Under the pieces are notes generated by a model. It saw only the letters and a list, made by a program, of their open reading frames with translations, was not told the origin of the DNA and searched no databases. 64,000 bases of DNA, taken from the NCBI GenBank assembly GCA_963719225.1, contig CAVRAY010000002.1:512001-576000 (forward strand), given 5' to 3'. Positions 34,028 through 51,660 of this stretch are shown piece by piece (position 1 is the stretch's first letter; each line of letters begins with the position of its first letter). Origin of the DNA: Thermoanaerobaculia bacterium (GTDB lineage: Bacteria; Acidobacteriota; Thermoanaerobaculia; UBA5066). Made by a program: the position numbers and the translations under genes.

Positions 34028-34062
34028 TCAGGAGCCTTAGCCGGTAAGCTTGACCCTGGGCA

Positions 34063-34996: not shown

Positions 34997-35518
34997 GGCG
35001 TACCCGTCCCTGGCTCTCGAGGTGCGAAACCAGCGCGACATGGAGTCGTTCGATCAGTTGCTCGCGGGCGAGCTGGACCTGGCGGTTCGGTCCCGGGAGG
35101 CGCTGCCGCACGGTTTGAGGTTCGAGCCGCTGTTCGCGTCGGATCGAATGCTGATCGTGCCGCGTGGTCACCTTAGAAACCCCTCGCTCGCCATGCGTTC
35201 GTGATCCCCCCGGCGGGTTCGACGTCGCGCCGCCTGATCGAGGCCGCGTTCCTGCGGGCCGGCCTGAGGCTGGAGATCGCGATGGAGGCGGGAGGCTGGG
35301 AGATCGTGAAGCGCCTGGTGCGGGCGGGGGTGGGCGTGGCGGTGGTTCCTCGATTCTGTCTGGAGGCTGCTGATCTCAGGAAGCTGGTGGCGATTCCGGC
35401 GGGGCATCTCTTCCCTCCGGATGCTTATGGGCTGGTGACGCGGGCGGGCACCGGCGCCTCATCCGCAACGGCCGCCGTGACGCGGTTGCTAGAGGAGGCG
35501 GGGAGGAGGGTGGGGTAG
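34997..35518 (+). repeat. LysR fragment copy 2
   Basis: Near-identical to the 3' part of copy 1; ~27-bp internal deletion; ends GGGTGGGGTAG. Confidence 0.95.
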
Positions 35519-35529
35519 GGGGGGCGGGG

Positions 35530-35841
35530 CTATCTGGCCACGGCCCGGGCGATCTCTCGAGGCCGTTTCCCGGTGGCGAGAAGCGACCGAACGATGAGAT
35601 CGAGGCTGACCTGCGCGTCAGCGGCCTCCATCTTCGCGACTCGGGACTGGCTCGAGCCCAGCTTCGAGGCGAGCGCCGTCTGGGACAGCCCCTTCTTCAA
35701 GCGCGCCTTCTTGAGTTCGCGAGCGAGGCTGAGCTTGATCTCGATGTAGGCCGATTCCTCGGGGGTCAGGCCGAGGAAGGTCTCGGCGGATCCGAATGTC
35801 CAGCCCTTCTTCGTGAGGCGAGCCTTCTTCGTCTTGTCCAT
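35530..35841 (-). CDS. XRE/HTH antitoxin
   Basis: LSQTALASKLGSSQSRVAKME. Confidence 0.88.
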   Translation of the reverse strand: MDKTKKARLTKKGWTFGSAETFLGLTPEESAYIEIKLSLARELKKARLKKGLSQTALASKLGSSQSRVAKMEAADAQVSLDLIVRSLLATGKRPREIARAVAR

Positions 35842-35845
35842 CTGA

Positions 35846-36178
35846 TTACTCCCTGTCCCATGCCGCGAGGCGCTGCGCGCAGGCGGCGATCACGGCTTTC
35901 GGCGTGCGTTGAGTGCCCTTCTTCTCGACTCCCAGTACCACGATCGCGTCATGCCGAACTGCATAGAAGATCCGCCAGTCGACGTTCCCGTCGGGCACTC
36001 GGAGCTCGTGGCAACCCTTCCCGATCCCCGGCATCGGTCGAGAATCCGGCAGCGAAAGCACGTCCCCCTGCTGAAGGCCCCTCAAGAGGTATCCGGCACG
36101 AACCCGCCCCTCCTTCGAAAAGGGCGGAGACTTGATTCCACCGTGCATCCACGCGAGGGGTTTCTCGGGGAGCTTCAT
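35846..36178 (-). CDS. RelE/ParE (Gp49-like) toxin
   Basis: SRPMPGIGKGCHELRV..WRIFY..KKGTQRTP. Confidence 0.88.
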   Translation of the reverse strand: MKLPEKPLAWMHGGIKSPPFSKEGRVRAGYLLRGLQQGDVLSLPDSRPMPGIGKGCHELRVPDGNVDWRIFYAVRHDAIVVLGVEKKGTQRTPKAVIAACAQRLAAWDRE

Positions 36179-36212
36179 TTCACCCGGAACGAGATTAGGG
36201 TGATTAGTGGTC

Positions 36213-36230
36213 TATGTCAAGACTGACATA
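36213..36230. promoter_or_regulatory. Putative TA operator
   Basis: TATGTCA-agac-TGACATA upstream of the minus-strand toxin. Confidence 0.55.
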
Positions 36231-36231
36231 T

Positions 36232-36566
36232 GTCCCCGGAGGTGCTGCCGCACGGTTTGAGGTTCGAGCCGCTGTTCGCGTCGGATCGAATGCTGATCGT
36301 GCCGCGTGGTCACGAGCTGGCGGGGAAGAAGCGCCCGACCCTCAGAGACCTCGCTCGCCATGGGTTCGTGATCCCCCCGGCGGGTTCGACGTCGCGCCGC
36401 CTGATCGAGGCCGCGTTCCTGCGGGCCGGCCTGAGGCTGGAGATCGCGATGGAGGCGGGAGGCTGGAGATCGTGAAGCGCCTGGTGCGGGCAGGGGTGGG
36501 CGTGGCGGTGGTTCCTCGGCCGCCGTGAGGAGGGTGCTGGAGGAGGCGGGGAGGAGGGTGGGGTAG
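36232..36566 (+). repeat. LysR fragment copy 3
   Basis: Near-identical; unique 3' internal deletion; same stop and G-tract end. Confidence 0.95.
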
Positions 36567-36575
36567 GGGTGGCTG

Positions 36576-36788
36576 TTAGGCGTAGGCGAGGCGGCCGCGG
36601 GCCTCGGGAATGGGTCGCCCGAGCGACTTTGCGGTCTCGATCCACTCGCGAATGACTACCTCGGCGGCCGCGAGAGCCTCGGCGTAGGACGCACCATCGG
36701 CCATGCAGCCCGGCAGCTCGGGAACCTCGGCGACGAACGCCTCGTCCTCTTTGCTCCAGTAGATGATGACTTCGTACTTGGGGCTCAT
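36576..36788 (-). CDS. hicB: HicB antitoxin
   Basis: YWSKEDEAFVAEVPELPGCMADG..EAL..GRPIP. Confidence 0.9.
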   Translation of the reverse strand: MSPKYEVIIYWSKEDEAFVAEVPELPGCMADGASYAEALAAAEVVIREWIETAKSLGRPIPEARGRLAYA

Positions 36789-37039
36789 AGCGCACCTGAA
36801 AGTTTATACCGGACGAGAATCGATCGCACCTGCTTGACCTGATAAGGCTTAGCTTTCGAACCCTTGGGCTGAATGTTGAGGATCTCGACGACCCCGTCCT
36901 TCGTGAAGATGTGATGGCTGCCTCGGGTGCGACTCTCGAACCCGAGTTCCTCGAGGAGAGCGCAGAGATCTGAGAAGCGGATGTTTGCGTCCGAGGCTCC
37001 GGTCAGGATCTGCTCCAGAAGCCGGCTGTGCCGAGTCAC
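36785..37039 (-). CDS. hicA: HicA toxin
   Basis: LGFESRTRGSHHIF..AKPYQVKQ. Confidence 0.9.
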   Translation of the reverse strand: MTRHSRLLEQILTGASDANIRFSDLCALLEELGFESRTRGSHHIFTKDGVVEILNIQPKGSKAKPYQVKQVRSILVRYKLSGAL

Positions 37040-37144
37040 GGGAGAACGCTAGCACGCCGAGCGACTCGCGAGCCGGCGCCGGAGGGGCTGGACTTGCCCC
37101 GATTTCGGGCGATAGGATTTGCCTCGCCAACCGGGGGTACATCG

Positions 37145-39001
37145 ATGACGCGGTCGCTCATATCGGCCTTGGCTTCGCTTCTCCTCGCAGTGGATGTCCG
37201 GGCGGCCGACCCCCGCTGGACGGTCGAATTCAAGGAAGGCGCGCGCACCTTCCTCACGGCGACGGGCCTCGAGGTCGGACAGAAGACAACTCCGGGCGCG
37301 ACGATCGCGGGATACCTCGTCGTCAAGCTGCCAGCCGACGTCGACCCCGCCACCACGAACCGCGGCGTGTTTCTCGGCCGCGTGCGTGTGCCCGAGCGGC
37401 GTGTCACTTGGCTGAAAGGGGACGAGTTTGCGGCCGGTGCGCTGCTGCCCGCGCAGCACCTCATCGCCGTCACTCCCAACGCCGGCTTCGAGCCCGGGTT
37501 GTGGGCGGTGAAGGTCCGCGACACCGTCAAGGACCGCAACGGGCGCCCGGTCAATCCCACGAACGCCACGTGGACGGTCGAGATCGGGGAACCGCGTGTA
37601 CGGCCGGACGAAAGCGGCCCGGCTCGTAACACGCTGAAGCTGAAGTTCACGACCGAGGTCGATCCGGCGACGTACGCGGACGGGATCGTCGTGGAGAAGC
37701 AGGTCGCGGGAGGCTGGGAGGAGGAGCCGCGGGGCAGCGCGACGATCGCGCCGCGGGAGCACGGCGGGTCGGTCAACGAGATCGGTCTCCGGCCCCTCGG
37801 CGGGTGGGAACGTGGGGCGACGTACCGCGTGCGCGTCACGGAGGCAATCCGCGACCTTCGTGGGCTCCCCCTGACGAACGCCGAAGACTTCAGCTTTGTT
37901 GTGCCGAAGTCCGGGCCGTTCGACACGCGTCACGAGCCGCGGCGGCCGGTGGCGCAGGCGAGTGCACAGGCGGCCTCTGCAGGGCCGGCGTTCCCGGGCG
38001 GGCAGGCGCTGGGCTGGCACGGGCACTGGACCGACCCCGTCACCGGGCTCATCTACATGCGCCACCGCTGGTACGACCCGCGGACGGGGACGTTCCTGTC
38101 GCCGGATCCGCTCGAAGACATCGACTCGCCGAACCAGTACCTGTTCGGCGCGGGCAGGCCGCACGAGGTGGTGGATCCGCTGGGGCTGTGTCTAGGTCTG
38201 GACAAGGAAGGGCGCCCCTGCGGTTACTACGCTGACAGGATCGACGACTACCTAGTCGAGACGGCGAAGCTGCGAAGAGACCGAACCGGGGTTCCACTGG
38301 CCCTCGATCGTCTGCTGCTCAGTCCGGTCACGGGGATTCTGCGACTCGGCGAGGCGCAGGGTCGACTCGGCTATCGATACGCCGAGGCTTTGACCAATCC
38401 CAGGGTCGCCCTGCCGCCAGGCGCGACCGTCACGAGCGAGACGAACGAGGTCGGAGCCGACCTGCTTCAGGCTGCCGGCGACGCAGCGCTGCTGGCGCCG
38501 CTGACGAGGGGCCTGGTTGGCATGCGCACCGCTGCCTCGCCTGCCGCTTTAGTCCCCATTGCGGAGTCGATGCGTCCGTCTCTGCCGGTGCTGAACCCGC
38601 ATTTCACCCCCGACCCAAAGGCGGTGTTGCAGAACCTGGCCACCTTCCAGAACGCACGGCTTGCTGCGAATCCGGCGCTCGCAGAAACGGTCCTGACACG
38701 CCCGGAGTACGCTGCCGCCACGAAGAACATCGGCATCGCGCGGATGGAGTGGGGGAACGCGGTTGAACGGCTAATGGCGGGAGAGGTTCGTGAGCAGCCC
38801 TCACTCAGATCTATGTTCGAACACCAGGGCGGACCAAACAGGCCAGATTTCATAGGAAGAGGCGCCTTCGATGGGCTGAAATTCGAGGTGACGACACCCG
38901 GACAAGTACGGGCGCACTTGGCTCGGCCCCGATACGGACTAGGATTGAATGTAGTCACCTACCAGAGGCCCGCGGGCTTTACTCTATTCCCGCCACAATG
39001 A
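37145..39001 (+). CDS. Mini-Rhs polymorphic toxin 1 (signal-like N-terminus, Ig-like domains, Rhs core end, putative nuclease CT)
   Basis: TGLIYMRHRWYDPRTGTFLSPDP..NQYLF..VDPLG; CT contains GNAVE..RPDF..FEVTT. Confidence 0.8.
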   Translation: MTRSLISALASLLLAVDVRAADPRWTVEFKEGARTFLTATGLEVGQKTTPGATIAGYLVVKLPADVDPATTNRGVFLGRVRVPERRVTWLKGDEFAAGALLPAQHLIAVTPNAGFEPGLWAVKVRDTVKDRNGRPVNPTNATWTVEIGEPRVRPDESGPARNTLKLKFTTEVDPATYADGIVVEKQVAGGWEEEPRGSATIAPREHGGSVNEIGLRPLGGWERGATYRVRVTEAIRDLRGLPLTNAEDFSFVVPKSGPFDTRHEPRRPVAQASAQAASAGPAFPGGQALGWHGHWTDPVTGLIYMRHRWYDPRTGTFLSPDPLEDIDSPNQYLFGAGRPHEVVDPLGLCLGLDKEGRPCGYYADRIDDYLVETAKLRRDRTGVPLALDRLLLSPVTGILRLGEAQGRLGYRYAEALTNPRVALPPGATVTSETNEVGADLLQAAGDAALLAPLTRGLVGMRTAASPAALVPIAESMRPSLPVLNPHFTPDPKAVLQNLATFQNARLAANPALAETVLTRPEYAAATKNIGIARMEWGNAVERLMAGEVREQPSLRSMFEHQGGPNRPDFIGRGAFDGLKFEVTTPGQVRAHLARPRYGLGLNVVTYQRPAGFTLFPPQ

Positions 39002-39690
39002 GGGTATTCGAAGGGCGCGAATTTCGTTCCTTTTACGACGATGGGGACTCGCTCTTCGAGGACATCGAGTTCCGGCGATGCTCCTTCATCAGTTCGGCGA
39101 TCTCGATCACGAGAAACCCCGGTCGAAGGTCGACGGCTCGACGTTGTCGTGTCATTTCGTGTGAACAGCGAGGGTGCGCGATCGATACAGCCGTCCTTGA
39201 GGATGTGCTCGTGGACGGATTTCTCACGCATGGCCTCTTGCAGACTTGGGGGGCCGTCTTCAAGCACGTCACGCTTCGGGGCCGGATGGGGCGAATCATG
39301 ACGAGTGACCGCATCGCTACGGGCACCGCTACGGCTGCCGAGCAGAGCGCCTTCGATGAAGCGAACGCTGCCTACTACGCCGCTGTCGATTGGGCCCTGG
39401 ACCTGCGCGAGGCGGAGTTCACAGACGAACCGGACTTCAGGGGCATCCCCGCGAGGCTTGTCATCCGAGACCCTGATTCACAGGTTGTGGTGACGCGAGA
39501 GAGGGCGATGCAGGGGACGTGGAGGCAGGTCGACCTCTCGGGCACCTCCTGGGAGGCGTACATCCAGGGAATGCTGAGGGACGGCTATCCCGACGTCATC
39601 CTCGTCGCACCTAAGCGGAGTCGGAAGTTCCGGGACCTGCTCAATGGGCTCATGAGACTGAAAGACGCCGGCGTTACGGAACCGTATTGA
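38998..39690 (+). CDS. Putative immunity protein
   Basis: ATGA-coupled to the Rhs toxin. Confidence 0.6.
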   Translation: MRVFEGREFRSFYDDGDSLFEDIEFRRCSFISSAISITRNPGRRSTARRCRVISCEQRGCAIDTAVLEDVLVDGFLTHGLLQTWGAVFKHVTLRGRMGRIMTSDRIATGTATAAEQSAFDEANAAYYAAVDWALDLREAEFTDEPDFRGIPARLVIRDPDSQVVVTRERAMQGTWRQVDLSGTSWEAYIQGMLRDGYPDVILVAPKRSRKFRDLLNGLMRLKDAGVTEPY

Positions 39691-40088
39691 TGGCATCGAG
39701 GATCATCGCGCACCGTGTGGAACTGCCGGGAGAAGGAATCCACGAAGTCTCCCTCGAGGCCTCGGACCACGGCCTTGTCATCGACGTCAACGCATCCACG
39801 GCCTACCACTACATCACGAACCGGGACTTCTCCGAGATCTTCGACGCACTGCACCTATACGATCGCGGCACCGCTGATGAGCTTCAGGGCGGAGAGTCAG
39901 CGTTCGTCGTGTGGTCGCCCGAACTCCAACGAGCCGGCGTCTTCTATCGGGGCAGGTTTCAGGCCGCTGTGGACTTTGAACGACACGAGGCGCGCTGCCG
40001 CAGCGGGTTTCCGACGTTGCCAAACACTCCGTGGCTTCGATCGGGCCACGGGTGGGACGATGAGCTCGTAAAGGGGCTGGAACCCTGA
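39687..40088 (+). CDS. Hypothetical protein, possible orphan immunity
   Basis: Overlapping start in the post-toxin gene run. Confidence 0.5.
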   Translation: MMASRIIAHRVELPGEGIHEVSLEASDHGLVIDVNASTAYHYITNRDFSEIFDALHLYDRGTADELQGGESAFVVWSPELQRAGVFYRGRFQAAVDFERHEARCRSGFPTLPNTPWLRSGHGWDDELVKGLEP

Positions 40089-40113
40089 ATTTACAGACCC
40101 CCAGCAGGCCTGC

Positions 40114-40953
40114 GTGGCTCAGTCTAGATCCGCTCTTCACGAAATGAACGGTCTGACGGATCTCGGCGCCTCCATCGCGATGAATGGCACGCCGGCCGTG
40201 CAGCAGGTCAGATTTCCCGGAAGGTTTCGTTGGACCAGGCGGCTGAACGTAAACCGCTTGTTTGACGACGTGGACCTTGGTGATGTGCATGGCCGCCCAC
40301 GGCTCTGGGGCCATGTCTCATTTGAAGGCTGTGCCTTTCGGGGCGTGACGCTGGACGGGGCGCGGCTCGAACGAGCGTCGTTCACGGGATGCCGATTTGA
40401 GCGTGTCAGATTCGGGCATCGCCTGATGGGGCTTATCAAAGGCTGTACGTTTGAGCACTCGACGTTCTCGGAGGTGGCGTTCGGTGGGGCCCAGATCATT
40501 GATTCCGGCTTTGCGTCATGCGAATTTGACCGAGTGGATGCGAGAGACCTCATGTTTCGGCAGACTCATATTCAGGGGCTCACGCTATCTGGCAACGTTT
40601 CGTCCTGCAACTTAGTCGACTGCACTGTGTCGGAGCTCGACGCCGGCAGAGCCTACGTTGAAGACCTCGGAATCGTCGGGGGCAGCCTGAGGGACGTGAC
40701 TTGGCCGCACCACGACTCGAACTTCGCGGTAGCCCCGTCCTCATTGATCGAGGTAATGGCAGAGGTGGAGCCGAAGCTCCGATTGGAGTCCCGGGCCCGC
40801 TACGAGGAAATGGCGCGTCTGTATTCCGCGTCATCGAGTCCGGTCGTGATGATTGCGAAGTCGGGCGTTAGGGAAATGACTGACGTGGAGTCGGACGCGG
40901 TCATAGGGGCTCTTCGGCGTTTCGGAGTCTCAAAGTCACCCGAGCCCAAGTGA
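40114..40953 (+). CDS. Pentapeptide-repeat protein, possible orphan immunity
   Basis: VSFEG-CAFRG-VTLDG-ARLER-ASFTG-CRFER pentapeptide periodicity. Confidence 0.7.
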   Translation: MAQSRSALHEMNGLTDLGASIAMNGTPAVQQVRFPGRFRWTRRLNVNRLFDDVDLGDVHGRPRLWGHVSFEGCAFRGVTLDGARLERASFTGCRFERVRFGHRLMGLIKGCTFEHSTFSEVAFGGAQIIDSGFASCEFDRVDARDLMFRQTHIQGLTLSGNVSSCNLVDCTVSELDAGRAYVEDLGIVGGSLRDVTWPHHDSNFAVAPSSLIEVMAEVEPKLRLESRARYEEMARLYSASSSPVVMIAKSGVREMTDVESDAVIGALRRFGVSKSPEPK

Positions 40954-41059
40954 CGAAGCCAAACGTTCTCACGCAGCACGTTTTCGCGTGCCTTATGCCG
41001 ACGCCTGGACTCGTTGCGCTGCGCTCCGATTTCCGTTCTTGTCCGACGTGAAGACGATC

Positions 41060-41852
41060 CGCGTCTGAACAAGTCACAGCCGGCCGTGACGATGACGGTG
41101 AAGGCTCTGGAGCGGGAGATGGGTGTGCCCCTCTTTGCGCGGGGGCCGCGGAAAGAGGCTGACGGCGGCGGGAGCGAGGCTGGCCGCGAGGGCCGCGGGC
41201 ATCCTGGAGGGCGCGCGGCGATTGAAGGAGGATGTCGCCGGAGAGCCGGAGGTGCCCCGGGGGCCCGTGCGGGTGGGGGCCGGGGAGGGGGACTCGGATT
41301 CGCGAGGCGTACCCGTCCCTGGCTCTCGAGGTGCGAAACCAGCGCGACATGGAGTCGTTCGATCAGTTGCTCGCGGGCGAGCTGGACCTGGCGGTTCGGT
41401 CCCGGGAGGCGCTGCCGCACGGTTTGAGGTTCGAGCCGCTGTTCGCGTCGGATCGAATGCTGATCGTGCCGCGTGGTCACGAGCTGGCGGGGAAGAAGCG
41501 CCCGACGCTCAGAGACCTCGCTCGCCATGCGTTCGTGATCCCCCCGGCGGGTTCGACGTCGCGCCGCCTGATCGAGGCCGCGTTCCTGCGGGCCGGCCTG
41601 AGGCTGGAGATCGCGATGGAAGCGGGAGGCTGGGAGATCGTGCAGCGCCTGGTGCGGGCAGGGGTGGGCGTGGCGGTGGTTCCTCGATTCTGTCTGGAGG
41701 CTGCTGATCTCAGGAAACTGGTGGCGATTCCGGCGGGGCATCTCTTGCCTCCGGATGTCCATGGGCTGGTGACGCGGGAGGGCACCGGCGCCTCATCCGC
41801 AACGGCCGCGGTGAGGAGGGTGCTGGAGGAGGCGGGGAGGAGGGTGGGGTAG
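41060..41852 (+). repeat. LysR fragment copy 4
   Basis: Starts 6 nt after the copy 1 start; deletion of the AIVYFLLPLL segment; same 3' end. Confidence 0.95.
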
Positions 41853-41860
41853 GGGGGAAG

Positions 41861-41920
41861 CTAAGCGACTTGATAGATGGCGGGCTTGAAGGACGGGGGC
41901 GGTATGGTCTTACCCGCCTC
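41861..41920 (-). pseudogene. hicB 3'-end remnant
   Basis: Encodes EAGKTIPPPSFKPAIYQVA*, matching the hicB C-terminus at 50596-50655. Confidence 0.8.
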
Positions 41921-42257
41921 CACCCTTGGACAAGAGTTCCTTGACGGCTGCCTCGAGGCCCGGCAACTCTTCGTTAACCGCCTGCCAGACGATGTCGAGA
42001 TCGGCGACGAAGTACTGGTGCGCGAGGACGTCGCGCATTCGGGCAAACCCACGCCAGTCGACAGCGGGATGGCGCTCCGTGAGTGCCTCCGGGAGCTTCT
42101 TGATGGCTTCCCCGATGACCCCGAGGTTGTGGAGGACGGCGTCGCGCGTGCGCACGTCGGAATCGAGCGTCTGCCGCGACGCGCCCGCGAGGTAGGTCCG
42201 CACGCGGGTTGCGGCCTCGAGGATGTCCTCCAGGTAGAGCCTAAAGTCCCGGGACAT
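41910..42257 (-). CDS. HEPN (DUF86) RNase toxin
   Basis: YLEDILEA..IGEAIK..MRDVLAHQY (RX4HXY). Confidence 0.9.
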   Translation of the reverse strand: MSRDFRLYLEDILEAATRVRTYLAGASRQTLDSDVRTRDAVLHNLGVIGEAIKKLPEALTERHPAVDWRGFARMRDVLAHQYFVADLDIVWQAVNEELPGLEAAVKELLSKGGGG

Positions 42258-42570: not shown

Positions 42571-42658
42571 GGCTGGCCGATTATCGCTCTCCGGCCGAGG
42601 GTCTGGACTTGCCCTGATTTCAAGCGATAGGATTTGCCCCGCCACCGGGGGTACATCG

Positions 42659-44216
42659 ATGAAGCGGTCGCTCATATCGGCCTTGGCTTCGCTTCTCCTC
42701 ACGGTAGACGTCCGGGCGGCCGAGCCTCGCTGGACGGTCGAATTCAAGGAAGGCGCGCACACATTCCTGACGGCGACGGGCCTCGAGGTCGGGCAGAAGA
42801 CAAGTCCCGGGGCGATCGCGGGTTACCTCGTCATCAGGCTTCCCGCCGACGTCGACCCCGCCACGACAAATCGCGGGATCTTTCTCGGTCGCGTGCGTGT
42901 GCCCGAGCGCCGGGTCACGTGGCTGAAGGAGGACGCAGTAAAGGTGCGCGACACGGTCAAGGACCGCAGCGGGCGCCCGATCAACCCCACGAACGCTACG
43001 TGGACGGTCGAGATCGGGGAGCCTCGCGCGCGTCCGAACGACTCCGGTCCGGCGCGCAACACCCTCAAATTGAAGTTCACGACCGAGGTCGACCCGGCGA
43101 CGTACGCGGACGGGATCGTCGTGGAGAAACAGGTCGCGAGCGGGTGGGAAGAGGAGCCGCGGGGCAGCGCGACGATCGCACCGAGCGCGCACGGCGGCTC
43201 GGTTAACGATATCGGACTCCGGCCGCTGGGCGGATGGGAGCGCGGCTCGACGTACCGCGTGCGCGTCACGGAGGCGATCCGCGACGTGCGCGGACAGCCG
43301 CTGACGAACGCCGAGGACTTCAGCTTCACCGTGCCGAAGTCCGGGCCGTTCGACACGCGCCACGAGCCGAAGCGGCCCGTGGCGCAGGCGAGCGCACAGG
43401 CGGCATCAGCAGGGCCGGCGTTCCCGGGCGGGCAGGCGCTCGGGTGGCACGGGCACTGGACGGACCCCGTCACCGGCCTGATCTACATGCGCCACCGCTG
43501 GTACGACCCGCGGACGGGGACGTTCCTCTCGCCGGACCCGCTGGAGGACATCGACTGGCCGAACCAGTACCTGTTCGGAGCGGGTAGGCCGCACGAAGTG
43601 GTGGATCCGCTGGGGCTGGCGGTGACGGTGAAGTGGGAGAAAGGCGTTCTCTGCAGGGGCTGTCTGACGTTTGGCGCCGACCTCGGGTTGACGATGGGAG
43701 GAACCGGAGTTCCAGTTCGCAAAGGACGTGGCCGGTGTCTATCTGCCCCGTCTCTTCGCCAGGCCGCGGCCTCGGGTTGCCACAGCCGGTGTCAGAGGTT
43801 CGGCCCCGATTGGTCCGGTGGGTCCGGTTCAGGCACTCGAGCCGGGGCAATGGGTGAGAGCCAGCGAGTCCATGAGTGCACGCGCTGCGGCCTACCAAAC
43901 GCAGATCTCTGGCCGGGCCGCCGGTGAGGTCTACCTGGTGGACGGAGTGAATTTCGATGCATTTCGCGGCGGAACGCTCCTCGACGCGAAGGGCCCGGGC
44001 TATGCGACCTTTACGAAAGACGGACGCTTTCGGGAGTTCTTTCAGGGTGCCGAGGATCTGCTTAGCCAGGCGGCTCGACAGGTGCGGGCCGCTGGCAAGA
44101 CATCCATCGAATGGCATGTCGCCGAAAGGGAGGCCGCCGACGCCATCACGACGTTGTTGCGTGAGGCGGGCTATTCTTCTCGGATCAATGTTGTCTTCAC
44201 ACCTCCAGTGCCGTGA
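42659..44216 (+). CDS. Mini-Rhs polymorphic toxin 2 with Tox-REase-5-like CT (frameshift after DPLG)
   Basis: N-terminal part homologous to toxin 1; CT has YQTQISG..DGVNFD..LLDAKG..IEWHVAE. Confidence 0.8.
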
Positions 44217-44941
44217 TGGCGGATAGCTTCGTTGTCGGCGCCTACTGGGGGAGCCGGTCGGAGATGCCGGAGGGCTGCGCACAAAGGCTGAATCAACTGC
44301 TCGCCGGGCTGAAGTCCCTGGACCCGGTGTTTGCTGGATGGTTCGCAAAAGGGCCTTCTGCGGGAATAGACCGAACAAAGAATCTCTCGCCCGCGGACAT
44401 CAATGATCTCGCTATGCGTGGAGTGAATCGGCGCGACCTCGGCGCCTCGCCCATCCCTGCGCTTGGCGTGCGAATCGGAGTTTGGAACGGCGGCCGCGAG
44501 GGAACGACCGCGGTGGGCATCAGCACGCGCTGTGGCTCCTTCGATGAGTCCGGCGGCGTGCCGGCCTTGAACTCACTTCTCATCAGCCTGCCGAATCAAG
44601 GCCCGGACGCCGATCGCATTCTCAACATCGAGGCACTTGAAGAAATGCTCGAAGTGGTCGTTCGCGCCTACGACCCGGACTGGGCGGTCGTGGCATCACG
44701 AGAACACATGAAGCTGTGGCCTTCTGGTCCTGAGGGCGGGCCCCACGCGGGCTGGATCACATATCTGTCCAGACGAAATAGAGAAGCGACGTTGGCGGCC
44801 AACGGTTTGGCCCTGAAACGCCTTGAGTTCGCTGCTTTCGGGACAGCCTGGGTCACGACGGAGGAGAGGTTTTCTCTTAGCAACCCCACTCACATCGCAC
44901 AGGGGCGCGTGTTGGAACAAGCCATCAGCCGAAGACCGTAG
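44213..44941 (+). CDS. Imm52-like immunity protein
   Basis: GAYWGSRSE..CAQRL..W, YDPDWA, GWITYL; coupled to the REase-5 CT. Confidence 0.75.
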   Translation: MMADSFVVGAYWGSRSEMPEGCAQRLNQLLAGLKSLDPVFAGWFAKGPSAGIDRTKNLSPADINDLAMRGVNRRDLGASPIPALGVRIGVWNGGREGTTAVGISTRCGSFDESGGVPALNSLLISLPNQGPDADRILNIEALEEMLEVVVRAYDPDWAVVASREHMKLWPSGPEGGPHAGWITYLSRRNREATLAANGLALKRLEFAAFGTAWVTTEERFSLSNPTHIAQGRVLEQAISRRP

Positions 44942-44987
44942 ACGAATGTAGTGTCACCCGACCAGTCTCACTGCGGGTGTGTGCAGC

Positions 44988-45646
44988 GCTCTGGAGCGGG
45001 AGATGGGTGTGTCCCTCTTCGCGCGGGAGGGTCGCGGAAAGAGGCTGACGGCGGCGGGAGCGAGGCTGGCCGCGAAGGCCGCGGGCATCCCGGAGGGCGC
45101 GCGGCGATTGAAGGAGGATGTCGCCGGAGAGCCGGAGGTGCCCCGGGGGCCGGTGCGGGTGGGGGCCGGCGAGGCCGCCATCGTCTACTTCCTGCTTCCG
45201 CTTCTTCGACGGATTCGCGAGGCGTACCCGTCCCTGGCTCTCGAGGTGCGAAACCAGCGCGACATGGAGTCGTTCGATCAGTTGCTCGCGGGCGAGCTGG
45301 ACCTGGCGGTTCGGTCCCGGGAGGCGCTGCCGCACGGTTTGAGGTTCGAGCCGCTGTTCGCGTCGGATCGAATGCTGATCGTGCCGCGTGGTCACGAGCT
45401 GGCGGGGAAGAAGCGCCCGACGCTCAGAGACCTCGCTCGCCATGCGTTCGTGATCCCCCCGGCGGGTTCGACGTCGCGCCGCCTGATCGAGGCCGCGTTC
45501 CTGCGGGCCGGCCTGAGGCTGGAGATCGCGATGGAGGCGGGAGGCTGGATGTCCATGGGCTGGTGACGCGGGAGGGCACCGCCGCCTCATCCGCAACGGC
45601 CGCCGTGAGGAGGGTGCTGGAGGAGGCGGGGAGGAGGGTGGGGTAG
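44988..45646 (+). repeat. LysR fragment copy 5
   Basis: Near-identical; ~120-bp 3' deletion (GGAGGCTGG|ATGTCC); same end. Confidence 0.95.
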
Positions 45647-45681
45647 GGGGGGACCCACCTACGCCACGATAGAATGCTCGA

Positions 45682-45927
45682 GTGAGCCGAGACCCGCTGC
45701 TCGCCAGAATCACGCTGGACCCCAAGGTCATGGTGGGGCAACCCGTGGTCCGTGGCACGCGCCTGACCGTCTCCTTCATCCTGGGCCGTCTCGCCCACGG
45801 ATCCGCGGTGGAGGACCTGCTGAGCGAGTATCGCGGGCTGACCCAGGAAGACGTTCAGGCCTGCCTGCTCTTCGCTGCGGAAGCGGTGGGCGACAACACC
45901 TTCGCCCCCCTCGCCAACGCGAAGTAA
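45682..45927 (+). CDS. DUF433 antitoxin
   Basis: RITLDPKVMVGQPVVRGTRL..LTQEDVQACL. Confidence 0.88.
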   Translation: MSRDPLLARITLDPKVMVGQPVVRGTRLTVSFILGRLAHGSAVEDLLSEYRGLTQEDVQACLLFAAEAVGDNTFAPLANAK

Positions 45928-46111
45928 GTGCGTTTTCTCGTCGACGAATCGACGGGGCCTGACGTGGCGCGGTGGCTTCGAGCGCCCGGCAAACAAGAAG
46001 GCGGTTCTGGAGAGGCTCCTTCAGGGGCACGGTAAGGACATTCCCGGCAGTTTCGTCGTCGTGTCGGAGGACACCGTGAGGATCACGCGGTTCTCGGGTG
46101 GCGGGAGCTGA
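45928..46111 (+). pseudogene. DUF5615 PIN toxin with large internal deletion
   Basis: MRFLVDESTGPDVARWLRA joined to C-terminal ..GSFVVVSEDTVRITR; stop codon overlaps LysR copy 6. Confidence 0.7.
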
Positions 46112-46429
46112 GGCGTACCCGTCCCTGGCTCTCGAGGTGCGAAACCAGCGCGACATGGAGTCGTTCGATCAGCTGCTCGCGGGCGAGCTGGACCTCGCGG
46201 TTCGGTCCCGGGAGGCGCTGCCGCACGGTTTGAGGTTCGAGCCGCTGTTCGCGTCGGATCGAATGCTGATCGTGCCGCGTGGTCACCTCAGAAACCCCTC
46301 GCTCGCCATGCGTTCGTGATCCCCCCGGCGGCTGTCCATGGGCTGGTGACGCAGGAGGGCACCGGCGCCTCATCCGCAACGGCCGCCGTGAGAAGGGTGC
46401 TGGAGGAGGCGGGGAGGAGGGTGGGGTAG
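46110..46429 (+). repeat. LysR fragment copy 6
   Basis: Two internal deletions; same end. Confidence 0.95.
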
Positions 46430-46448
46430 GGGGTAACATTCTGAAGGT

Positions 46449-46772
46449 ATGAGCCCCGCGCAAGTGCTTTCAAGCGGACGGATTACGGTGCCTCGGGAGG
46501 CCATTGCGGGCTTCTGCCGGAAGCACCACATCCGGCGGCTGGCTCTGTTCGGGTCGGTGCTTCGAGACGACTTTCGAGGTGACAGCGACGTGGACGTCCT
46601 GGTCGAGTTCGAACCCACCCACGTTCCCGGGTTCTTCGGGCTTTTCGGAATGGAGCAGGAGCTTGGGGAGATCGTCGGCCGCAAGGTGGACCTGAACACG
46701 CCGGGCTCGCTGAGCAAGTACTTCCGGGCCCGGGTATTGGCCGAGGCCGTGCCGCTGCATGACGCGGCATGA
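46449..46772 (+). CDS. MNT antitoxin
   Basis: [20 protein letters not shown]. Confidence 0.9.
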
Positions 46773-47097
46773 CGAGGACGCGCGCCTCCGGCACATGCTG
46801 GACGCTTCGCGCGAGGCCGTCGGCTTCGCGAAAGGGAGATCGAGAGCAGACCTGCACGCCGACCGCGGCTTGCAGCTGATTCTCACGAGGCTTCTCGAAA
46901 TTGTCGGCGAGGCGGCGAACAAGGTGCCGCAGGCGACACGCGACCTCTACCCTGAGATTCCCTGGTCGGCCGCGATCGCGATCCGAAACCGCCTGATCCA
47001 CGGCTACGAGGACGTCGACCTCGACATCGTCTGGCAGACTGTCAACGAGGATCTGCCGAAGTTGATCCGGGCACTGGAGATCGCTGTCGGCGGGTAA
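46759..47097 (+). CDS. HEPN (DUF86) toxin
   Basis: [20 protein letters not shown]. Confidence 0.9.
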
Positions 47098-47117
47098 AGG
47101 GACGACGCAACGACGTT

Positions 47118-47711
47118 CTACCTTTTCCCCTTCGGCGCCTGCGGCCGGAACAGCTTGAGGATCTCGTTGACCAGGTTCAGATCGAAACGTTCCGGGTTGT
47201 ACCGCGGGCCGGCCCAGGTTCGCACGCGGTCGTGCTCCTCGTGCGCCGGGTCGCGCCAGGCCTCGAGAAACCCCACGTAGCCGCCGGTGCCTCCGCAGTC
47301 CTCGGGCGGTGCGGCACGGGCGCCTCCGAGACAGACCGGATAACGGATGGCGGGGTCGGGCGAGAAGCGCTTCTCGACGGCGATGTCGTGGATCCAGTCG
47401 TCCCCGAAGTCGTACGTGTACGAGAAGCGCGTGACGTCGCGTGTCACGAGGTCGCCGAGCCGCGTCATGCGCGGGTGACGGGGACGGACGTCCTCCGGGA
47501 ATTCCGGGTCGGGTTCTGTCACTCGCGACGTCCCGACCTCGAACGCGTAGAGGTGGCTGTGCTCCCACCCGAAAGACCACTGGATGATCTCGTGAAGGAG
47601 ATGGAACGTGCGCGTGTTCGTGACGTGAATGACGCGATAGATCGGCCGCTCGACGTCGCGGATCCGAATCCGGAGCTGAAGGACCTCTTCAGGGAAAGCG
47701 GCGGGTTTCAT
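47118..47711 (-). CDS. pRiA4b ORF-3 family protein
   Basis: LHEIIQWSFGWEHSHL, YTYDFGDDWIH, APPEDCGG. Confidence 0.88.
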   Translation of the reverse strand: MKPAAFPEEVLQLRIRIRDVERPIYRVIHVTNTRTFHLLHEIIQWSFGWEHSHLYAFEVGTSRVTEPDPEFPEDVRPRHPRMTRLGDLVTRDVTRFSYTYDFGDDWIHDIAVEKRFSPDPAIRYPVCLGGARAAPPEDCGGTGGYVGFLEAWRDPAHEEHDRVRTWAGPRYNPERFDLNLVNEILKLFRPQAPKGKR

Positions 47712-47730
47712 CGAGCACATTGTGCGCGGG

Positions 47731-48369
47731 GCCGCCGCGCGTCTGAACAAATCACAGCCGGCCGTGACGATGACGGTGAAGGCTCTCGAGCGGGGAAAGA
47801 GGCTGACGGCGGCGGGAGCGAGGCTGGCCGCGAAGGCCGCGGGCATCCTGGAGGGCGCGCGGCGATTGAAGGAGGACGTCGCCGGAGAGCCGGAGGTGCC
47901 CCGGGGGCCGGTGCGGGTGGGAGGGGATTCGGATTCGCGAGGCGTACCCGTCTCTGGCTCTCGAGGTGCGAAACCAGCGCGACATGGAGTCGCTCGATCA
48001 GTTGCTCGCGGGCGAGCTGGACCTGGCGGTTCGGTCCCGGGAGGCGCTGCCGCACGGCTTGAGGTTCGAGCCGCTGTTCGCGTCGGATCGAATGCTGATC
48101 GTGCCGCGTGGTCACGAGCTGGCGGGGAAGAAGCGTCCGACGCTCAGAGACCTCTCTCGCCATGCGTTCGTGATCCCCCCGGCGGGTTCGACGTCGCGCC
48201 GCCTGATCGAGGCCGCGTTCCTGCGGGCCGGCCTGAGGCTGGAGATCGCGATGGAGGCGGGAGGCTGGCTGTCCATGGGCTGGTGACGCGGGAGGGCACC
48301 GGCGGCGCCTCATCCGCAACGGCCGCCGTGAGGCGGTTGCTGGAGGAGGCGGGGAGGAGGGTGGTGTAG
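47731..48369 (+). repeat. LysR fragment copy 7
   Basis: Same 5' boundary as copy 1 (GCCGCCGCGCGTCTGAAC); three internal deletions. Confidence 0.95.
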
Positions 48370-48388
48370 GGGGTAACATTCTGCTGGT

Positions 48389-48712
48389 ATGAGCCCCGCG
48401 CAAGTGCTTTCAAGCGGACGGATTACGGCGCCTCGAGAGGCCGTTGCGGGCTTCTGCCGGAAGCACCACATCCAGCGGCTGGCTCTGTTCGGGTCGGTAC
48501 TTCGAGACGACTTTCGCCCCGAGAGCGACGTGGATGTCCTGGCCGAGTTCGAGCCCGGGGGCGTGCCGGACTTTTTCGAGCTGGTCGGAATGAAAGAAGA
48601 GCTTTCTTCGATCTTCGGCCGCCGGGTGGACCTCAAGACCCCGAACTCTCTGAGTCCGTATTTCCGCGACCGGGTTCTCGCCGAAGCTTTCCGCCTCCAT
48701 GACGCGGCATGA
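48389..48712 (+). CDS. MNT antitoxin
   Basis: [19 protein letters not shown]; N-terminal half nearly identical to 46449. Confidence 0.9.
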   Translation: MSPAQVLSSGRITAPREAVAGFCRKHHIQRLALFGSVLRDDFRPESDVDVLAEFEPGGVPDFFELVGMKEELSSIFGRRVDLKTPNSLSPYFRDRVLAEAFRLHDAA

Positions 48713-49034
48713 CGAGCTGATTCGCCTTCAGCACATGCTGGACGCGGCCCGTGAGGCGGTCGAGCTCGTCCGCGGTCGGACCTCGCAGCAAATCGAGGAA
48801 GACCGCCTTCGGGTGCTCGCACTCGAGAGGCTGTTCGAGATCATCGGAGAAGCGGCTGCACAGACCTCTGACGGCGTCCGGGCGCGATACCCGGAGATTC
48901 CGTGGAGCCGGATCGTCGGGATGCGCAACGAGATCATCCACGGCTATTCGACGATCGATCTCGAGATAGTCCTCAAGACGGTGGAGAACCGGCTCCCAGC
49001 GCTGATCAGGCAACTCGAAGCGGCTCTGAAGTAG
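48699..49034 (+). CDS. HEPN (DUF86) toxin
   Basis: EIIGEAA..MRNEIIHGY. Confidence 0.9.
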   Translation: MTRHDELIRLQHMLDAAREAVELVRGRTSQQIEEDRLRVLALERLFEIIGEAAAQTSDGVRARYPEIPWSRIVGMRNEIIHGYSTIDLEIVLKTVENRLPALIRQLEAALK

Positions 49035-49052
49035 TCGGCTGCTCCTGACGCA

Positions 49053-49461
49053 GGATTCGCGAGGCGTACCCATCCCTGGCTCTCGAGGTGCGAAACCAGC
49101 GCGACATGGAGTCGTTCGATCAGTTGCTCGCGGGCGAGCTGGACCTGGCGGTTCGGTCCCGGGAGGCGCTGCCGCACGGCTTGAGGTTCGAGCCGCTGTT
49201 CGCGTCGGATCGAATGCTGATCGTGCCGCGTGGTCACCCCAGAGACCTCTCTCGCCATGCGTTCGTGATTCCCCCGGCGGGTTCGACGTCGCGCCGCCTG
49301 ATCGAGGCCGCGTTCCTGCGGGCCGGCCTGAGGCTGGAGATCGCGATGGAGGCGGGAGGCTGGATGTCCATGAGCTGGTGACGCGGGAAGGCACCGGCGC
49401 CTCATCCGCAACGGCCGCCGTGAGGCGGTTGCTGGAGGAGGCGGGGAGGAGGGCGGGGTAG
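49053..49461 (+). repeat. LysR fragment copy 8
   Basis: Both common deletions; same end. Confidence 0.95.
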
Positions 49462-49584
49462 GGGGCTATCTGGCCACCACCCGAGGAGAGCCCGGCGAAG
49501 GACGAGCCGTTCGACGTGACGTGCGTCCCCGGCTTCTACGACGGCGAGGGCGACCTCTGCGGCGGGGCCTTTTCTTGGCCCGGT

Positions 49585-49926
49585 CTACGGTGTGGCAGGG
49601 CTGCCGAGGATTTCGATTACCTTGGCCTTCAACGCAGGCACGTCCCGCGCAACGGCGACCCAGACTTCCTCGAGGTCAATGCCGAAGTAGTCGTGTACGA
49701 GGATGTTCCGCATGGCGGCTATCTGACTCCACGGGACATCCGGGTGCGCGGCGCGAATCCCCTCCGAAAGGCCACGCACAGCTTCGCCAATGATCTGAAG
49801 GTGATGGACGATCCAGGTCTGGACCAACTCGTCGCCGTCAAACGGAGTCCGGCCGCCGCTCGCATACTTCTCGATGCGCTCGATCGCCTCAAGGATGTCT
49901 TCGAGGCGTTGCCGGTCCCGCTTCAA
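49585..49926 (-). CDS. HEPN (DUF86) toxin
   Basis: LEDILEAI..IIGEA..MRNILVHDY. Confidence 0.9.
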   Translation of the reverse strand: MKRDRQRLEDILEAIERIEKYASGGRTPFDGDELVQTWIVHHLQIIGEAVRGLSEGIRAAHPDVPWSQIAAMRNILVHDYFGIDLEEVWVAVARDVPALKAKVIEILGSPATP

Positions 49927-50213
49927 AGCGGAACGGCCTCTTTCAGGACTCGGTCCCGGATTCGGGACCGCAGCCCGCGGGCGACGGCGACGTCGACTCT
50001 GCGGCCGAGCAAGGCTTCGAGCTCTATCACCAGGGCGGCGTGATCGAGAAGGCTACGGCCGGGCTCGAGATCGACGAGCAGGTCCACGTCGCTATCCGCC
50101 GAAGCTTCGCCGCGCGCGACTGATCCAAACACGCGCACGTTGCCCGCTCCGTGGGCCTTGGCCGCGCGGAGGATCGCAGGCCGGTTCTCGCTGAGGAATT
50201 CTTCGATTCCCAT
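49923..50213 (-). CDS. MNT antitoxin
   Basis: VFGSVARGEASADSDVDLLV. Confidence 0.9.
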   Translation of the reverse strand: MGIEEFLSENRPAILRAAKAHGAGNVRVFGSVARGEASADSDVDLLVDLEPGRSLLDHAALVIELEALLGRRVDVAVARGLRSRIRDRVLKEAVPL

Positions 50214-50243
50214 GGTCGCCTCAAGGAGATTGTAGTCGCTGGG

Positions 50244-50590
50244 GATCAGTTGCTCGCGTGCGAGCTGGACCTGGCGGTTCGGTCCCGGGAGGCGCTGCCG
50301 CACGGTTTGAGGTTCGAGCCGCTGTTCGCGTCGGATCGAATGCTGATCGTGCCGCGTGGGTCACCTTAGAAACCCCTCGCTCGCCATGCGTTCGTGATCC
50401 CCCCGGCGGGTTCGACGTCGCGCCGCCTGATCGAGGCCGCGTTCCTGCGGGCCGGCCTGAGGCTGGAGATCGCGATGGAGGCGGGAGGCTGGATGTCCAT
50501 GGGCTGGTGACGCGGGAGGGCACCGGCGCCTCATCCGCAACGGCCGCCGTGACCCGGTTGCCGGAGGAGGCGGGGAGGAGGGTGGGGTGG
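50244..50590 (+). repeat. LysR fragment copy 9
   Basis: Both common deletions; stop changed TAG to TGG within the G-tract. Confidence 0.95.
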
Positions 50591-50595
50591 GGGGG

Positions 50596-50814
50596 CTAAG
50601 CGACTTGATAGATGGCAGGCTTGAACGACGGGGGCGGGATCGGCTTTCCCGCCTCCTTGGCAGCCTCCAGCCAGGCGGCCTTCGCCTTCAACACTTCCTC
50701 GAGCGCCTTTTCAGGCGTCTCTCCAAAGGCGGAGCAGTGCGGCAGATCGGGGATATCGGCGATGTAACCGCCATCCTCGTCGCTCTGGAAGATGTTGATG
50801 TGGTAGTCCTTCAT
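50596..50814 (-). CDS. hicB: HicB antitoxin
   Basis: EDGGYIADIPDLPHCSAFGETPEKAL. Confidence 0.9.
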   Translation of the reverse strand: MKDYHINIFQSDEDGGYIADIPDLPHCSAFGETPEKALEEVLKAKAAWLEAAKEAGKPIPPPSFKPAIYQVA

Positions 50815-51058
50815 TCGTCGCCTGCGAGCTTTAGATTATGCCGCTCTACGAGTTGGAGCAACTGCTTGATCTGATAAGGCTTGGCCTGTCCGTGAACTTC
50901 CTGGAGATTCAGGAGCTGCGGGATTGCACGAAGATGTGGTGGCTCCCACTTACGCGACTGAGACGGAACCCGAAGGCCTCAGCGAGCGCCCGGGCCTCGG
51001 CGAACCTGAAGTTGTTTGGAGAGGCCAGCGCCCTCTGGAGGAGCTTTCGGGGGTTCAT
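50811..51058 (-). pseudogene. hicA: HicA toxin, frameshifted
   Basis: Manual translation: MNPRKLL..GFRLSRVSGSHHIFV / IPQLLNLQEVHGQAKPYQIKQ. Confidence 0.8.
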
Positions 51059-51084
51059 TGGCTGAACCTAAACCTAGCACGCCT

Positions 51085-51458
51085 GCGAGGCGTACCCGCC
51101 CCCAGGCTCTCGAGGTGCGAAACCAGCGCGACATGGAGTCGTTCGATCAGTTGCTCGCGGGCGAGCTGGACCTGGCGGTTCGGTCCCGGGAGGCGCTGCC
51201 GCACGGTTTGAGGTTCGAGCCGCTGTTCGCGTCGGGTCGAGTGCTGATCGTGCCGCGTGGTCACCTTAGAAACCCCTCGCTCGCCATGCGTTCGTGATCC
51301 CCCCGGCGGGTTCGACGTCGCGCCGCCTGATCGAGGCCGCGTTCCTGCGGGCCGGCCTGAGGCTGGAGATCGCGATGGAGGCGGGAGGCTGGACGTCCAT
51401 GGGCTGGTGACGCGGGAGGGCACCGGCGCCTCATCCGCAACGGCCGCCGTGAGGAGGG
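51085..51458 (+). repeat. LysR fragment copy 10 (also 3'-truncated)
   Basis: Both common deletions; ends ~30 nt before the stop. Confidence 0.92.
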
Positions 51459-51460
51459 GG

Positions 51461-51660
51461 CCATAGAACTCGGCGACGGCCGTTTGCACCGCCCCGGCCG
51501 CGAGAGCACGGTCGACATGAGCGAGAAGCGTCCGGGCGAGGTCCGCGTCGATCCGGTTCAAGGTCCGCCAGAGGCTCTCCTCCGGATTCGAGCGCTCCGC
51601 ACCCAGGCAGCAGGCCTTGTACTTCTTCCCGCTCCCGCACGGACACGGTGCGGCCGCGCG
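51461..51660 (-). pseudogene. SEC-C motif protein fragment
   Basis: PCPCGSGKKYKACC. Confidence 0.65.

Follow-up and report, generated by a model that had tools for sequence, protein, structure and literature searches.

The window, a stretch of 64,000 nucleotides from a Thermoanaerobaculia bacterium, contains a row of ten LysR gene fragments (c0 to c9). All of them are on the forward strand and they are spaced by toxin-antitoxin (TA) and other cassettes (Table 1). The pairwise identity of the fragments is 95.5-98.9% (45 pairs). An earlier note on this DNA numbered the same fragments as copies 1-10 and placed them at 34997..51458; c0, its copy 1, falls outside that interval. Insertion as a MITE or retro-copy was rejected, since all the LysR copies of this genome lie in two one-strand clusters and are not dispersed in both orientations. 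One cassette of the window (cassette 9) has a 93.6% identical copy in the array of C1, the other contig of the genome.

Table 1. Components of the LysR array, in window coordinates.
Feature	Position	Strand	Description
half attC-like site	32365..32395	+	just upstream of c0; nhmmer E=0.0034, model of the genome's own attC sites
c0	32459..33293	+	leader LysR fragment without the first ~20 codons; ends with stop codon and G-run; PF00126, PF03466
cassette 1	33300..34995	+	putative toxin (no Pfam match; which we take to be RelE-like) and HTH/MqsA-like antitoxin, then unknown 310-aa ORF
c1	34997..35523	+	LysR fragment, deletion A only
cassette 2	35530..36178	-	Gp49 (RelE-like) toxin and HTH_3 antitoxin
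c2	36232..36569	+	LysR fragment, private 118-bp deletion
cassette 3	36576..41059	mixed	HicA/HicB (-), then Big_5 protein (presumably with an Rhs-like core), unknown ORF, DUF2251 and pentapeptide protein (+)
c3	41060..41857	+	LysR fragment, deletion C, without A and B
cassette 4	41860..44987	mixed	HicB-like tail remnant, HepT/MNT pair (-), then Big_5 protein, Tox-REase-5, Imm52 (+)
c4	44988..45651	+	LysR fragment, deletion B only
cassette 5	45655..46109	+	DUF433 and PIN-like gene with internal deletion
c5	46110..46433	+	LysR fragment, deletion A and enlarged 204-bp B-type deletion
cassette 6	46437..47729	mixed	MNT-HepT pair (+), pRiA4b ORF3-like gene (-)
c6	47730..48373	+	LysR fragment, deletions C and B and private 36-bp deletion
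cassette 7	48377..49048	+	second MNT-HepT pair, 83% identity to cassette 6
c7	49049..49465	+	LysR fragment, second A allele and B
cassette 8	49470..50243	-	HepT/MNT pair after short scar of the end of cassette 2
c8	50244..50595	+	LysR fragment, deletions A and B
cassette 9	50596..51084	-	small gene pair resembling HicA/HicB (by resemblance, not Pfam)
c9	51085..51461	+	LysR fragment, A and B deletions; tail stops 29 nt short of the stop-codon end
c10	51799..51831	+	eleventh piece, 33-bp LysR remnant

The fragments were compared with a larger set of 94 LysR copies in 36 loci from this genus and from metagenomes, to which the same deletions are common. Before counting, four of 40 metagenome loci were dropped for lack of a LysR copy and six as redundant; four further probable duplicate arrays were removed before the cassette-adjacency and within-locus tests. 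The downstream junctions fall into 41 classes, which are not fully independent because several hold scars of an earlier cassette and the copies are kin; 30 of them end at the LysR stop codon or its G-run and 11 cut into the LysR tail. No right arm is common to the 41 classes. The starts of the 42 upstream classes are scattered from position 1 to 869 of 899, and the shortest copy consists of the last 29 nt only. The cargo begins after the LysR stop codon in both orientations, and none of the 36 loci is of mixed orientation.

The same layout is found behind unrelated genes. Co-oriented TY-Chap gene tails precede the same cassette kinds in four genomes (G044, G001, G020 and G004), and in G054 these kinds stand behind co-oriented tails of a HIRAN gene. 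The HIRAN array comprises four fragments and an intact gene, which sits inside it; all end within ~3 nt of the stop position and three of the five carry three different stop codons. This array occurs in one genome only, with single matches in 5 other genomes of 175. Among 10 further regions around MNT-HepT matches, anchor-like repeats are clear in at least two genomes (G053 and G054). The three unrelated anchor genes (LysR, TY-Chap and HIRAN) share no site.

LysR pieces (E<=1e-8) are present in 6 of 28 other genomes of the genus and in 0 of 34 other genomes of the family. None of the conclusions relies on G025, an unpublished genome. Intact LysR proteins of 296-297 aa exist elsewhere, in metagenomes (P0043, P0044). 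No intact lysR was found in this genome (G000), G012, G008 or G044, so no live leader is seen heading a LysR array. The viral contigs and the plasmid collection gave no match that would indicate phage or plasmid carriage. The source reads were not recovered among the public sequencing runs, in which at most 0.19 of the words matched. Contigs of one RNA run extend over parts of c0, without thereby demonstrating transcription. A comEC-family gene is present in the genome.

Deletion alleles of the LysR copies

The three internal deletions described in the earlier note are present in the copies that it named. Deletion A is found in copies 2, 6, 8, 9 and 10 (c1, c5, c7, c8, c9), deletion B (121 bp) in copies 5 and 7-10 (c4, c6, c7, c8, c9) with an enlarged form of 204 bp in copy 6 (c5), and deletion C in copies 4 and 7 (c3, c6). 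All four combinations of A and B also occur, as the note had stated. The A by B table of the large set reads 10/24/1/6 over 41 scorable copies, where the class carrying A only is still the single copy c1.

Identity of the deletion endpoints between copies holds for part of the alleles. The same B junction is common to 24 copies, several species and short-read metagenome contigs, and is seen in contigs from 2 of the 4 public runs examined; therefore, it is not a long-read error. On the other hand, deletion A comprises two alleles, a 27-bp deletion with a linked 2-nt insertion (c1, c5, c8, c9) and one without the insertion (c7). Deletion E has two alleles of equal length with shifted endpoints, deletion B has an equal-length variant with shifted endpoints that is restricted to one locus, and the endpoints of deletion C are not identical in c3 and c6, the c6 form looking like the c3 allele with a further small deletion. 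Some deletions recur with shifted endpoints and therefore homoplasy adds some noise. Microhomologies at the deletions, the other property raised in the note, span 0-5 nt (2 nt for B). Hairpin-assisted recurrent deletion was rejected: in a comparison with segments of equal length, the 5% level was reached by only 1 of 18. The same deletion alleles stand beside unrelated cassettes and in more than one species, and copies with a retained start codon (P0074, L015) carry them too, which supports the earlier proposal that already-dead fragments were propagated.

Exchange between the copies

Four-gamete incompatibility affects 14 of 36 marker pairs in the window and 132 of 297 in the larger set. Copies with the same upstream cassette have the same downstream cassette in 1 of 49 pairs, with ~1 expected (46 of 2145 overall), and r2 falls with distance (r=-0.235, permutation p=0.0014). 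Over the central part of the gene, divergence is lower between copies of the same locus (1.65% vs 3.06%, p=0.0005). These three results (unlinked cassettes, r2 decay and within-locus similarity) support recombination or gene conversion between copies, which the note had proposed from the deletions. A test resembling the PHI test that it named, on the incompatibility of near sites, gave no significant signal (p=0.47). Similarity within loci was not significant over the tail as a whole (p=0.39), and junction-adjacent SNPs did not significantly track the adjacent cassette, either downstream (p=0.07) or upstream (p=0.43). One tail variant is carried by 7 of the 13 copies of this genome and by 0 of the 8 other loci with at least 3 copies. 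Among shared SNPs, 32 of 52 are synonymous against an expected 0.28-0.32, compared with 59 of 158 singletons; this synonymous-rich pattern indicates that live alleles also fed the pool. Cassettes re-associate freely across loci, the LysR copies likely behave as crossover points, and the fragments may be kept for a function.

The locus is a row of TA and other small cassettes, and every cassette follows a truncated 3' piece of lysR. The cassettes are probably re-ordered and swapped by homologous recombination within the pieces. Recombination of this kind would leave the deletions assorted among copies. The cassettes would move as units flanked by LysR homology, through circle excision and re-integration, unequal crossover or DNA uptake, using the general recombination of the host without a dedicated enzyme. 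The mechanism is read from static sequence, with no recombination event, circle or transfer observed. The genome contains two adjacent PDDEXK_1 proteins and no RecC match, and a search for a Chi-like site gave no tail word that is at once strand-skewed and over-represented.

The chances are about even that a cassette first attaches behind a still-functional lysR and that the redundant copy is later cut back from its 5' side. A cassette joined behind a functional lysR would have its junction barred from the open reading frame and so trimmed to the stop codon. The second, redundant lysR copy could then be shortened anywhere from the 5' side. Dead LysR copies far outnumber live ones, yet only 11 of the 41 classes enter the tail, so selection on the live reading frame alone may not suffice. 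The fixed junction may originate either from selection on the live gene or from a G-tract hotspot.

Alternative explanations

The second of these origins is rather unlikely. In it the G-rich tail sets the junction: a G-quadruplex or G-tract would stall replication, be nicked or block end resection, and cassettes would join just 3' of it. This replaces the junction step only, and shuffling by homologous recombination would still follow. The LysR tail has a G4Hunter-type score of 1.87, above all 1343 long-gene ends scored in the genome, and the canonical four-tract motif is kept in 39 of 64 LysR tails. For TY-Chap the mean score is 1.24 in cassette-linked tails (n=16) and 0.56 in the native operon (n=5), with p=0.014 for copies that are not independent. 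The G-rich strand lies on the leading-strand side in both arrays of the genome, by GC skew, all 5 genomes checked encode Ku, and the copy reduced to 29 nt is also in keeping with this origin. However, the fixed junction is found in the HIRAN array too, where the tails score 0.13-0.33. Moreover, the motif is absent in 25 of 64 LysR tails, a variant breaking one G-tract occurs in 20 of 65 LysR copies, and the LysR tail varies more than the middle of the gene (~4.8% vs 3.1%).

An integrase or transposase encoded elsewhere could insert at the 3' end of lysR and regenerate it, the fragments being displaced attachment-site pieces of tandem islands decayed to TA modules. In this genome, G012 and G044 the arrays do occupy an accessory island close to tmRNA. 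A stretch of the LysR tail agrees with the final 14 nt of tmRNA at 13 of 14 positions and points the same way as the nearer tmRNA, and the repeats of the G053 array, beside a tmRNA, end exactly at such a 14-mer. An integron integrase is also present, TIGR02249 being above cut-off only at C1:1115046 on the other contig. This explanation is nevertheless quite improbable. Displaced attachment pieces are expected to share their 5' start, whereas it is the 3' end that is constant here, with 5' ends spread across 869 nt; the LysR junction lies ~15-20 nt past the tmRNA-like 14-mer, and neither a common right arm nor a site common to the three anchor genes exists. Tandem islands at a gene 3' end were rejected on the scattered 5' crossover positions (42 upstream classes) and on the lack of an integrase gene in the island (PF00589, PF00239).

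The recombinase search covered PF00589 and PF00239. It found no tyrosine recombinase within ~250 kb of the window array (the nearest, on C2, is ~250 kb off) and no PF00239 resolvase in this genome. A first heuristic attC scan, with 1 match in the true integron, was too insensitive and was replaced by a profile search. The profile, built from 17 of the attC sites of the genome itself, recovers the clusters on C1, where the true integron and attC cluster lie (~1.10-1.12 Mb and 2.20 Mb); it finds no full attC in the array and only the half site in the window, although very divergent attC sites could escape it. An integron or CALIN was rejected, as no integrase lies next to the array and no attC follows each cassette. 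Rfam gave 0 matches at E<=0.5 within 30-54 kb. A KOPS-like octamer spelled by the LysR junction, judged by the consensus that we take for KOPS, was also rejected: it is unskewed (12 vs 12) and the other anchors lack it.

Mixed strains or long-read consensus errors could have produced the mosaic during assembly, but such an artefact is very improbable. Contamination of the assembly amounts to 6.2% and small frameshifts are many; contig C2 may be chimeric, as it carries ~200 kb of core genes twice, at ~75% identity and inverted. Nevertheless, these junctions and deletions are also present in 30 metagenome loci, in other species and in public-run contigs. Cassette-plus-flank units of the window are found again in L081, L103 and L074, and the order of the whole array is known from the assembly alone. 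A history of serial tandem duplication in which independent deletions recurred at shared hotspots and the copies exchanged nothing is extremely improbable. The shifted or paired alleles of E, B and A and the single A-only copy speak for it; against it stand the short microhomologies, hairpins no commoner than chance, incompatible SNP pairs, linkage that decays with distance and a cassette order randomised across loci.

Beyond the exchange of cassettes by homologous recombination within lysR pieces, a broader and tentative reading is that any gene tail of the island (LysR, TY-Chap, HIRAN) may act, without an integrase, as a self-propagating joint for a shared pool of TA cassettes. Tails able to form G-quadruplexes would be favoured and enriched as setters of the capture point, and dead alleles might return to the parent gene and inactivate it. 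Cassette exchange at gene tails would in itself be a route to integron-like cassette arrays without a dedicated enzyme or an evolved site, in which a pseudogene tail serves and the anchor gene is interchangeable. Arrays of this sort would go undetected by integron finders, and their present annotation is probably that of pseudogene debris. Gene tails that are co-oriented and end at the stop codon provide a simple signature to search for in other genomes. The growth of TA and defence hotspots, and a possible steering of bacterial gene capture by G-tracts, also become testable.

Comparison with known systems

No description of this layout was found in the open-access literature. The LysR array resembles integrons and CALINs in being a co-oriented, compact cassette array, rich in TA modules, whose order varies between genomes, but it is devoid of attI, IntI and full attC sites. 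The available portions of the account of PeSL cassettes in T4-type phages (Arbiol et al. 2010, PMC2839356) describe an integrase-free shuffling of accessory genes via interspersed repeats and mini-circles. The PeSLs belong to phages and are functional promoter and terminator units, whereas the LysR repeats are pseudogene pieces of 30-830 bp in a bacterial island.

In the G4-initiated gene conversion at Neisseria pilE, as covered by the accessible part of a review (PMC4412290), a G-rich tract also lies beside recombining gene copies. There, one G4 upstream of the expressed locus is required, as shown by mutation, whereas every LysR repeat ends in a G-tract whose role is only a candidate one. 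By score, a G4-capable tract is present in the LysR and TY-Chap tails and not in the HIRAN array.

The T6SS effector-immunity arrays of Vibrio are attributed to homology-facilitated illegitimate recombination (Kirchberger et al. 2017, PMC5361080, in the parts available). Modules are proposed to be added through homology to a conserved upstream anchor sequence, and then to be exchanged between strains by ordinary recombination. The anchor of those arrays is not repeated between modules and their cargo is the effector-immunity pairs of one secretion system.

The whole scheme proposed for the LysR array would amount to an rhs-type displacement with an ordinary gene as anchor. The rhs C-terminal displacement arrays and CDI orphan modules, in the accessible portions of Jackson et al. 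(2009, PMC2935791) and Poole et al. (2011, PMC3150448), likewise consist of successive 3' portions of a conserved gene, variable in length and each with variable cargo at a fixed junction, for which homologous recombination via circular intermediates and no integrase is proposed. The LysR copies show the same arrangement, with 30 of 41 downstream classes at the fixed end and starts from 1 to 869. However, the cargo of the rhs and CDI arrays is an in-frame toxin tip, with an immunity gene, the fixed junction is a protein motif and the anchor is an rhs or cdiA gene. The LysR cargo instead follows the stop codon, which is itself the junction, and consists of self-contained TA operons in either orientation. 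The anchor here is an ordinary regulator, all of whose copies may be dead, and genes unrelated to it can take its place.

Organization of the arrays

The source assembly consists of two contigs, C1 and C2, and the window lies on C2 (512001-576000). Its ten co-oriented LysR fragments (c0 to c9) alternate with toxin-antitoxin (TA) pairs and other small genes. The cargo comprises Gp49/HTH, HicAB, MNT-HepT (three or four times), DUF433 and a Tox-REase-5/Imm52 module, and defence-type genes (WYL, helicase, methylase, Z1 and AIPR) are placed on the left side of the array. A second array of LysR tails is located on C1. The two arrays have one cassette in common (93.6% identity). They also share a tail variant that is private to them and absent from all other loci compared, in keeping with one gene pool. 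The intact LysR parent gene was not found in this genome, the sole other match being a 32% paralogue.

Two Big_5 proteins with an Rhs-like core, 88% identical and differing in their C-terminal toxin/immunity parts, appear to form a small displacement pair of their own within the LysR array. In forward cassettes of the window and related loci, a -10-like hexamer lies only ~5-10 nt ahead of the start codon, a position that suggests candidate leaderless transcripts. Two words counted over the whole C1 contig are candidate polarity motifs for the lineage: runs of eight G, at 143 versus 8 on the leading strand, and one 7-mer rich in G, at 483 versus 186.

Coordinates of the arrays and associated features
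Feature	Location	Remark
LysR fragment array	window 32.4-51.5 kb	ten fragments
Half attC	window 32365-32395	directly upstream of leader copy c0
Big_5 proteins	window 37028-39001; 42560-44941	
-10-like hexamers	window 46437-46449; 45672-45682	
Presumed IS-like element, labelled from its ORFs	window 28840-30048	98.9% identical to C1:2204976, within the attC cluster
Second LysR-tail array (L001)	G000:C1:9364-13521	three copies
Integron with integrase	G000:C1:1103006-1115984	
attC cluster without integrase	G000:C1:2197217-2210607	separate from the integron
Doubled core genes	C2:609753-801307; C2:6294-222780	inverted, ~75% identity
HIRAN array (genome G054)	L130:7157-11882	one intact gene, four fragments
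TA array beside tmRNA (genome G053)	L132:5527-7863	

Probable cassette shuffling and the fixed junction

The junction into the following LysR piece is particular to each cassette type and is in many cases kept across loci. Among copy pairs with a common upstream cassette, the downstream cassette was the same in 1/49, compared with 46/2145 pairs overall. Since the upstream junctions are often conserved and the downstream cassettes are random, the switch point lies within the LysR piece. This cassette structure is the clearest evidence of recombination. The layout, the shared alleles and the unlinked cassettes are direct observations; homologous recombination through the LysR repeats probably moves the cassettes and mixes the deletions.

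Of the 41 downstream junction classes, 30 fall on the stop codon or its G-run, and the start positions of the 42 upstream classes are scattered from 1 to 869. Several junctions still carry a few bases of an earlier cassette, so not every class is independent, and deletion within the arrays gave rise to some of them. A junction might form behind a live gene and then be trimmed to the stop codon, with redundant copies eroding from the 5' side, a scheme with less support than the shuffling.

When the same cassettes were examined where LysR is lacking, the tail of a TY-Chap3/TY-Chap1 gene emerged as a second anchor. Its arrays are co-oriented and contain the same cassette kinds (L121 in G044, L122 and L123 in G001, L115 in G020 and L127 in G004). 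Four copies in G004 are 92-94% alike and only ~72% like other TY-Chap copies. TY-Chap tails next to cassettes are G-richer than the native-operon copies, and G-rich tails in both anchors at first suggested a G-quadruplex hotspot. That the G-tract itself sets the junction, which is compatible with shuffling, is nevertheless rather unlikely: in the array of a third anchor, a HIRAN gene of G054 that came from an out-of-sample look in another genus, TA cassettes separate one intact gene and four fragments, each of which ends at the stop position, and the tails are not G-rich. Three unrelated genes thus point to the stop codon as a common rule; the G-tract would not be required and may help. In the G053 TA array beside tmRNA, the repeats are instead the 5' piece of a gene; they stop inside an ORF, at a 14-mer that resembles the 3' end of tmRNA and may be a secondary attachment site.

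Insertion of the cassettes by an unseen integrase is improbable, as no tyrosine recombinase or resolvase was found near the arrays. The integron and the attC cluster are located elsewhere in the genome. The half attC, the only attC match in the window, suggests a broken integron cassette at the array head.

Deletions, spread of the repeat and sources of alleles

The earlier note had described internal deletions assorting among the LysR copies in all combinations. Its deletion table was correct. Deletion A has two alleles, the 'A only' class is the single copy c1, and the endpoints of deletion C differ between copies by a secondary deletion. Four-gamete incompatibility affects 14/36 marker pairs within the window and 132/297 scorable pairs in the mapped copy set, where all four classes are present in 5/21 deletion pairs. 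The A x B table is 10/24/1/6 and the C x B table 3/2/1/4. Linkage r2 declines with distance (r=-0.235, p=0.0014), and within-locus copies resemble each other more in the gene's central part (p=0.0005). Near-site incompatibility of LysR markers (p=0.47) and within-locus similarity over the tail overall (p=0.39) were not significant, nor did SNPs significantly track neighbouring cassette identity. The observation is real, and the note's reading of recombination between copies stands.

Judging from the sequences compared, the mosaic is not an assembly artefact, an explanation that we consider very improbable. The LysR repeat (92-99% identity) is found in 6/28 other genomes of the genus, in 0/34 other family genomes searched and in 30 non-redundant metagenome loci. 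The 94 copies, in 36 loci, that were mapped to a reference of 297 codons show mixed orientation at no locus, and the B junction has one position in 24 copies, with a microhomology of only 2 nt. On the other hand, C2 has a doubled stretch of ~200 kb of core genes, tmRNA and tRNA-Pro among them, at ~75% identity; the contig could be chimeric at some point, or the doubling may be a very large transfer. A 1.5-kb contig titled Dormibacterales (L065) shares the LysR repeat and the cassettes, with 94-100% identity; it is probably misbinned, the alternative being cross-phylum transfer. Pure duplication with homoplasy is barely credible: recurrent variants of deletions E and B add some homoplasy, but the cassettes are unlinked, r2 decays and a hairpin-driven origin was not supported when the deleted stretches were tested.

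Intact LysR proteins of 296-297 aa, nearly identical to the reference, occur in metagenomes, and the remaining homologues have 34-47% identity. Shared SNPs are synonymous-rich (32/52, against 59/158 singletons and 0.28-0.32 expected, the kinship of copies overstating the significance), which argues that the pool is fed by selected alleles. Dead alleles also spread, as the earlier note proposed for dead fragments: the protein P0074 and the locus L015 keep the start codon, yet carry deletions that occur in fragments, and this suggests a flow back into full-length copies.

Relation to known systems

The layout, co-oriented gene-tail repeats between cassettes, was without description in the open-access literature searched. 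In its workings the LysR array resembles rhs C-terminal displacement (PMC2935791) and the orphan arrays of CDI (PMC3150448), with parallels in Vibrio T6SS arrays (PMC5361080) and phage PeSL shuffling (PMC2839356). The LysR array belongs to none of these systems: its anchor is a regulator gene rather than a toxin gene, its cargo has no in-frame fusion, and it does not show the integron features looked for.
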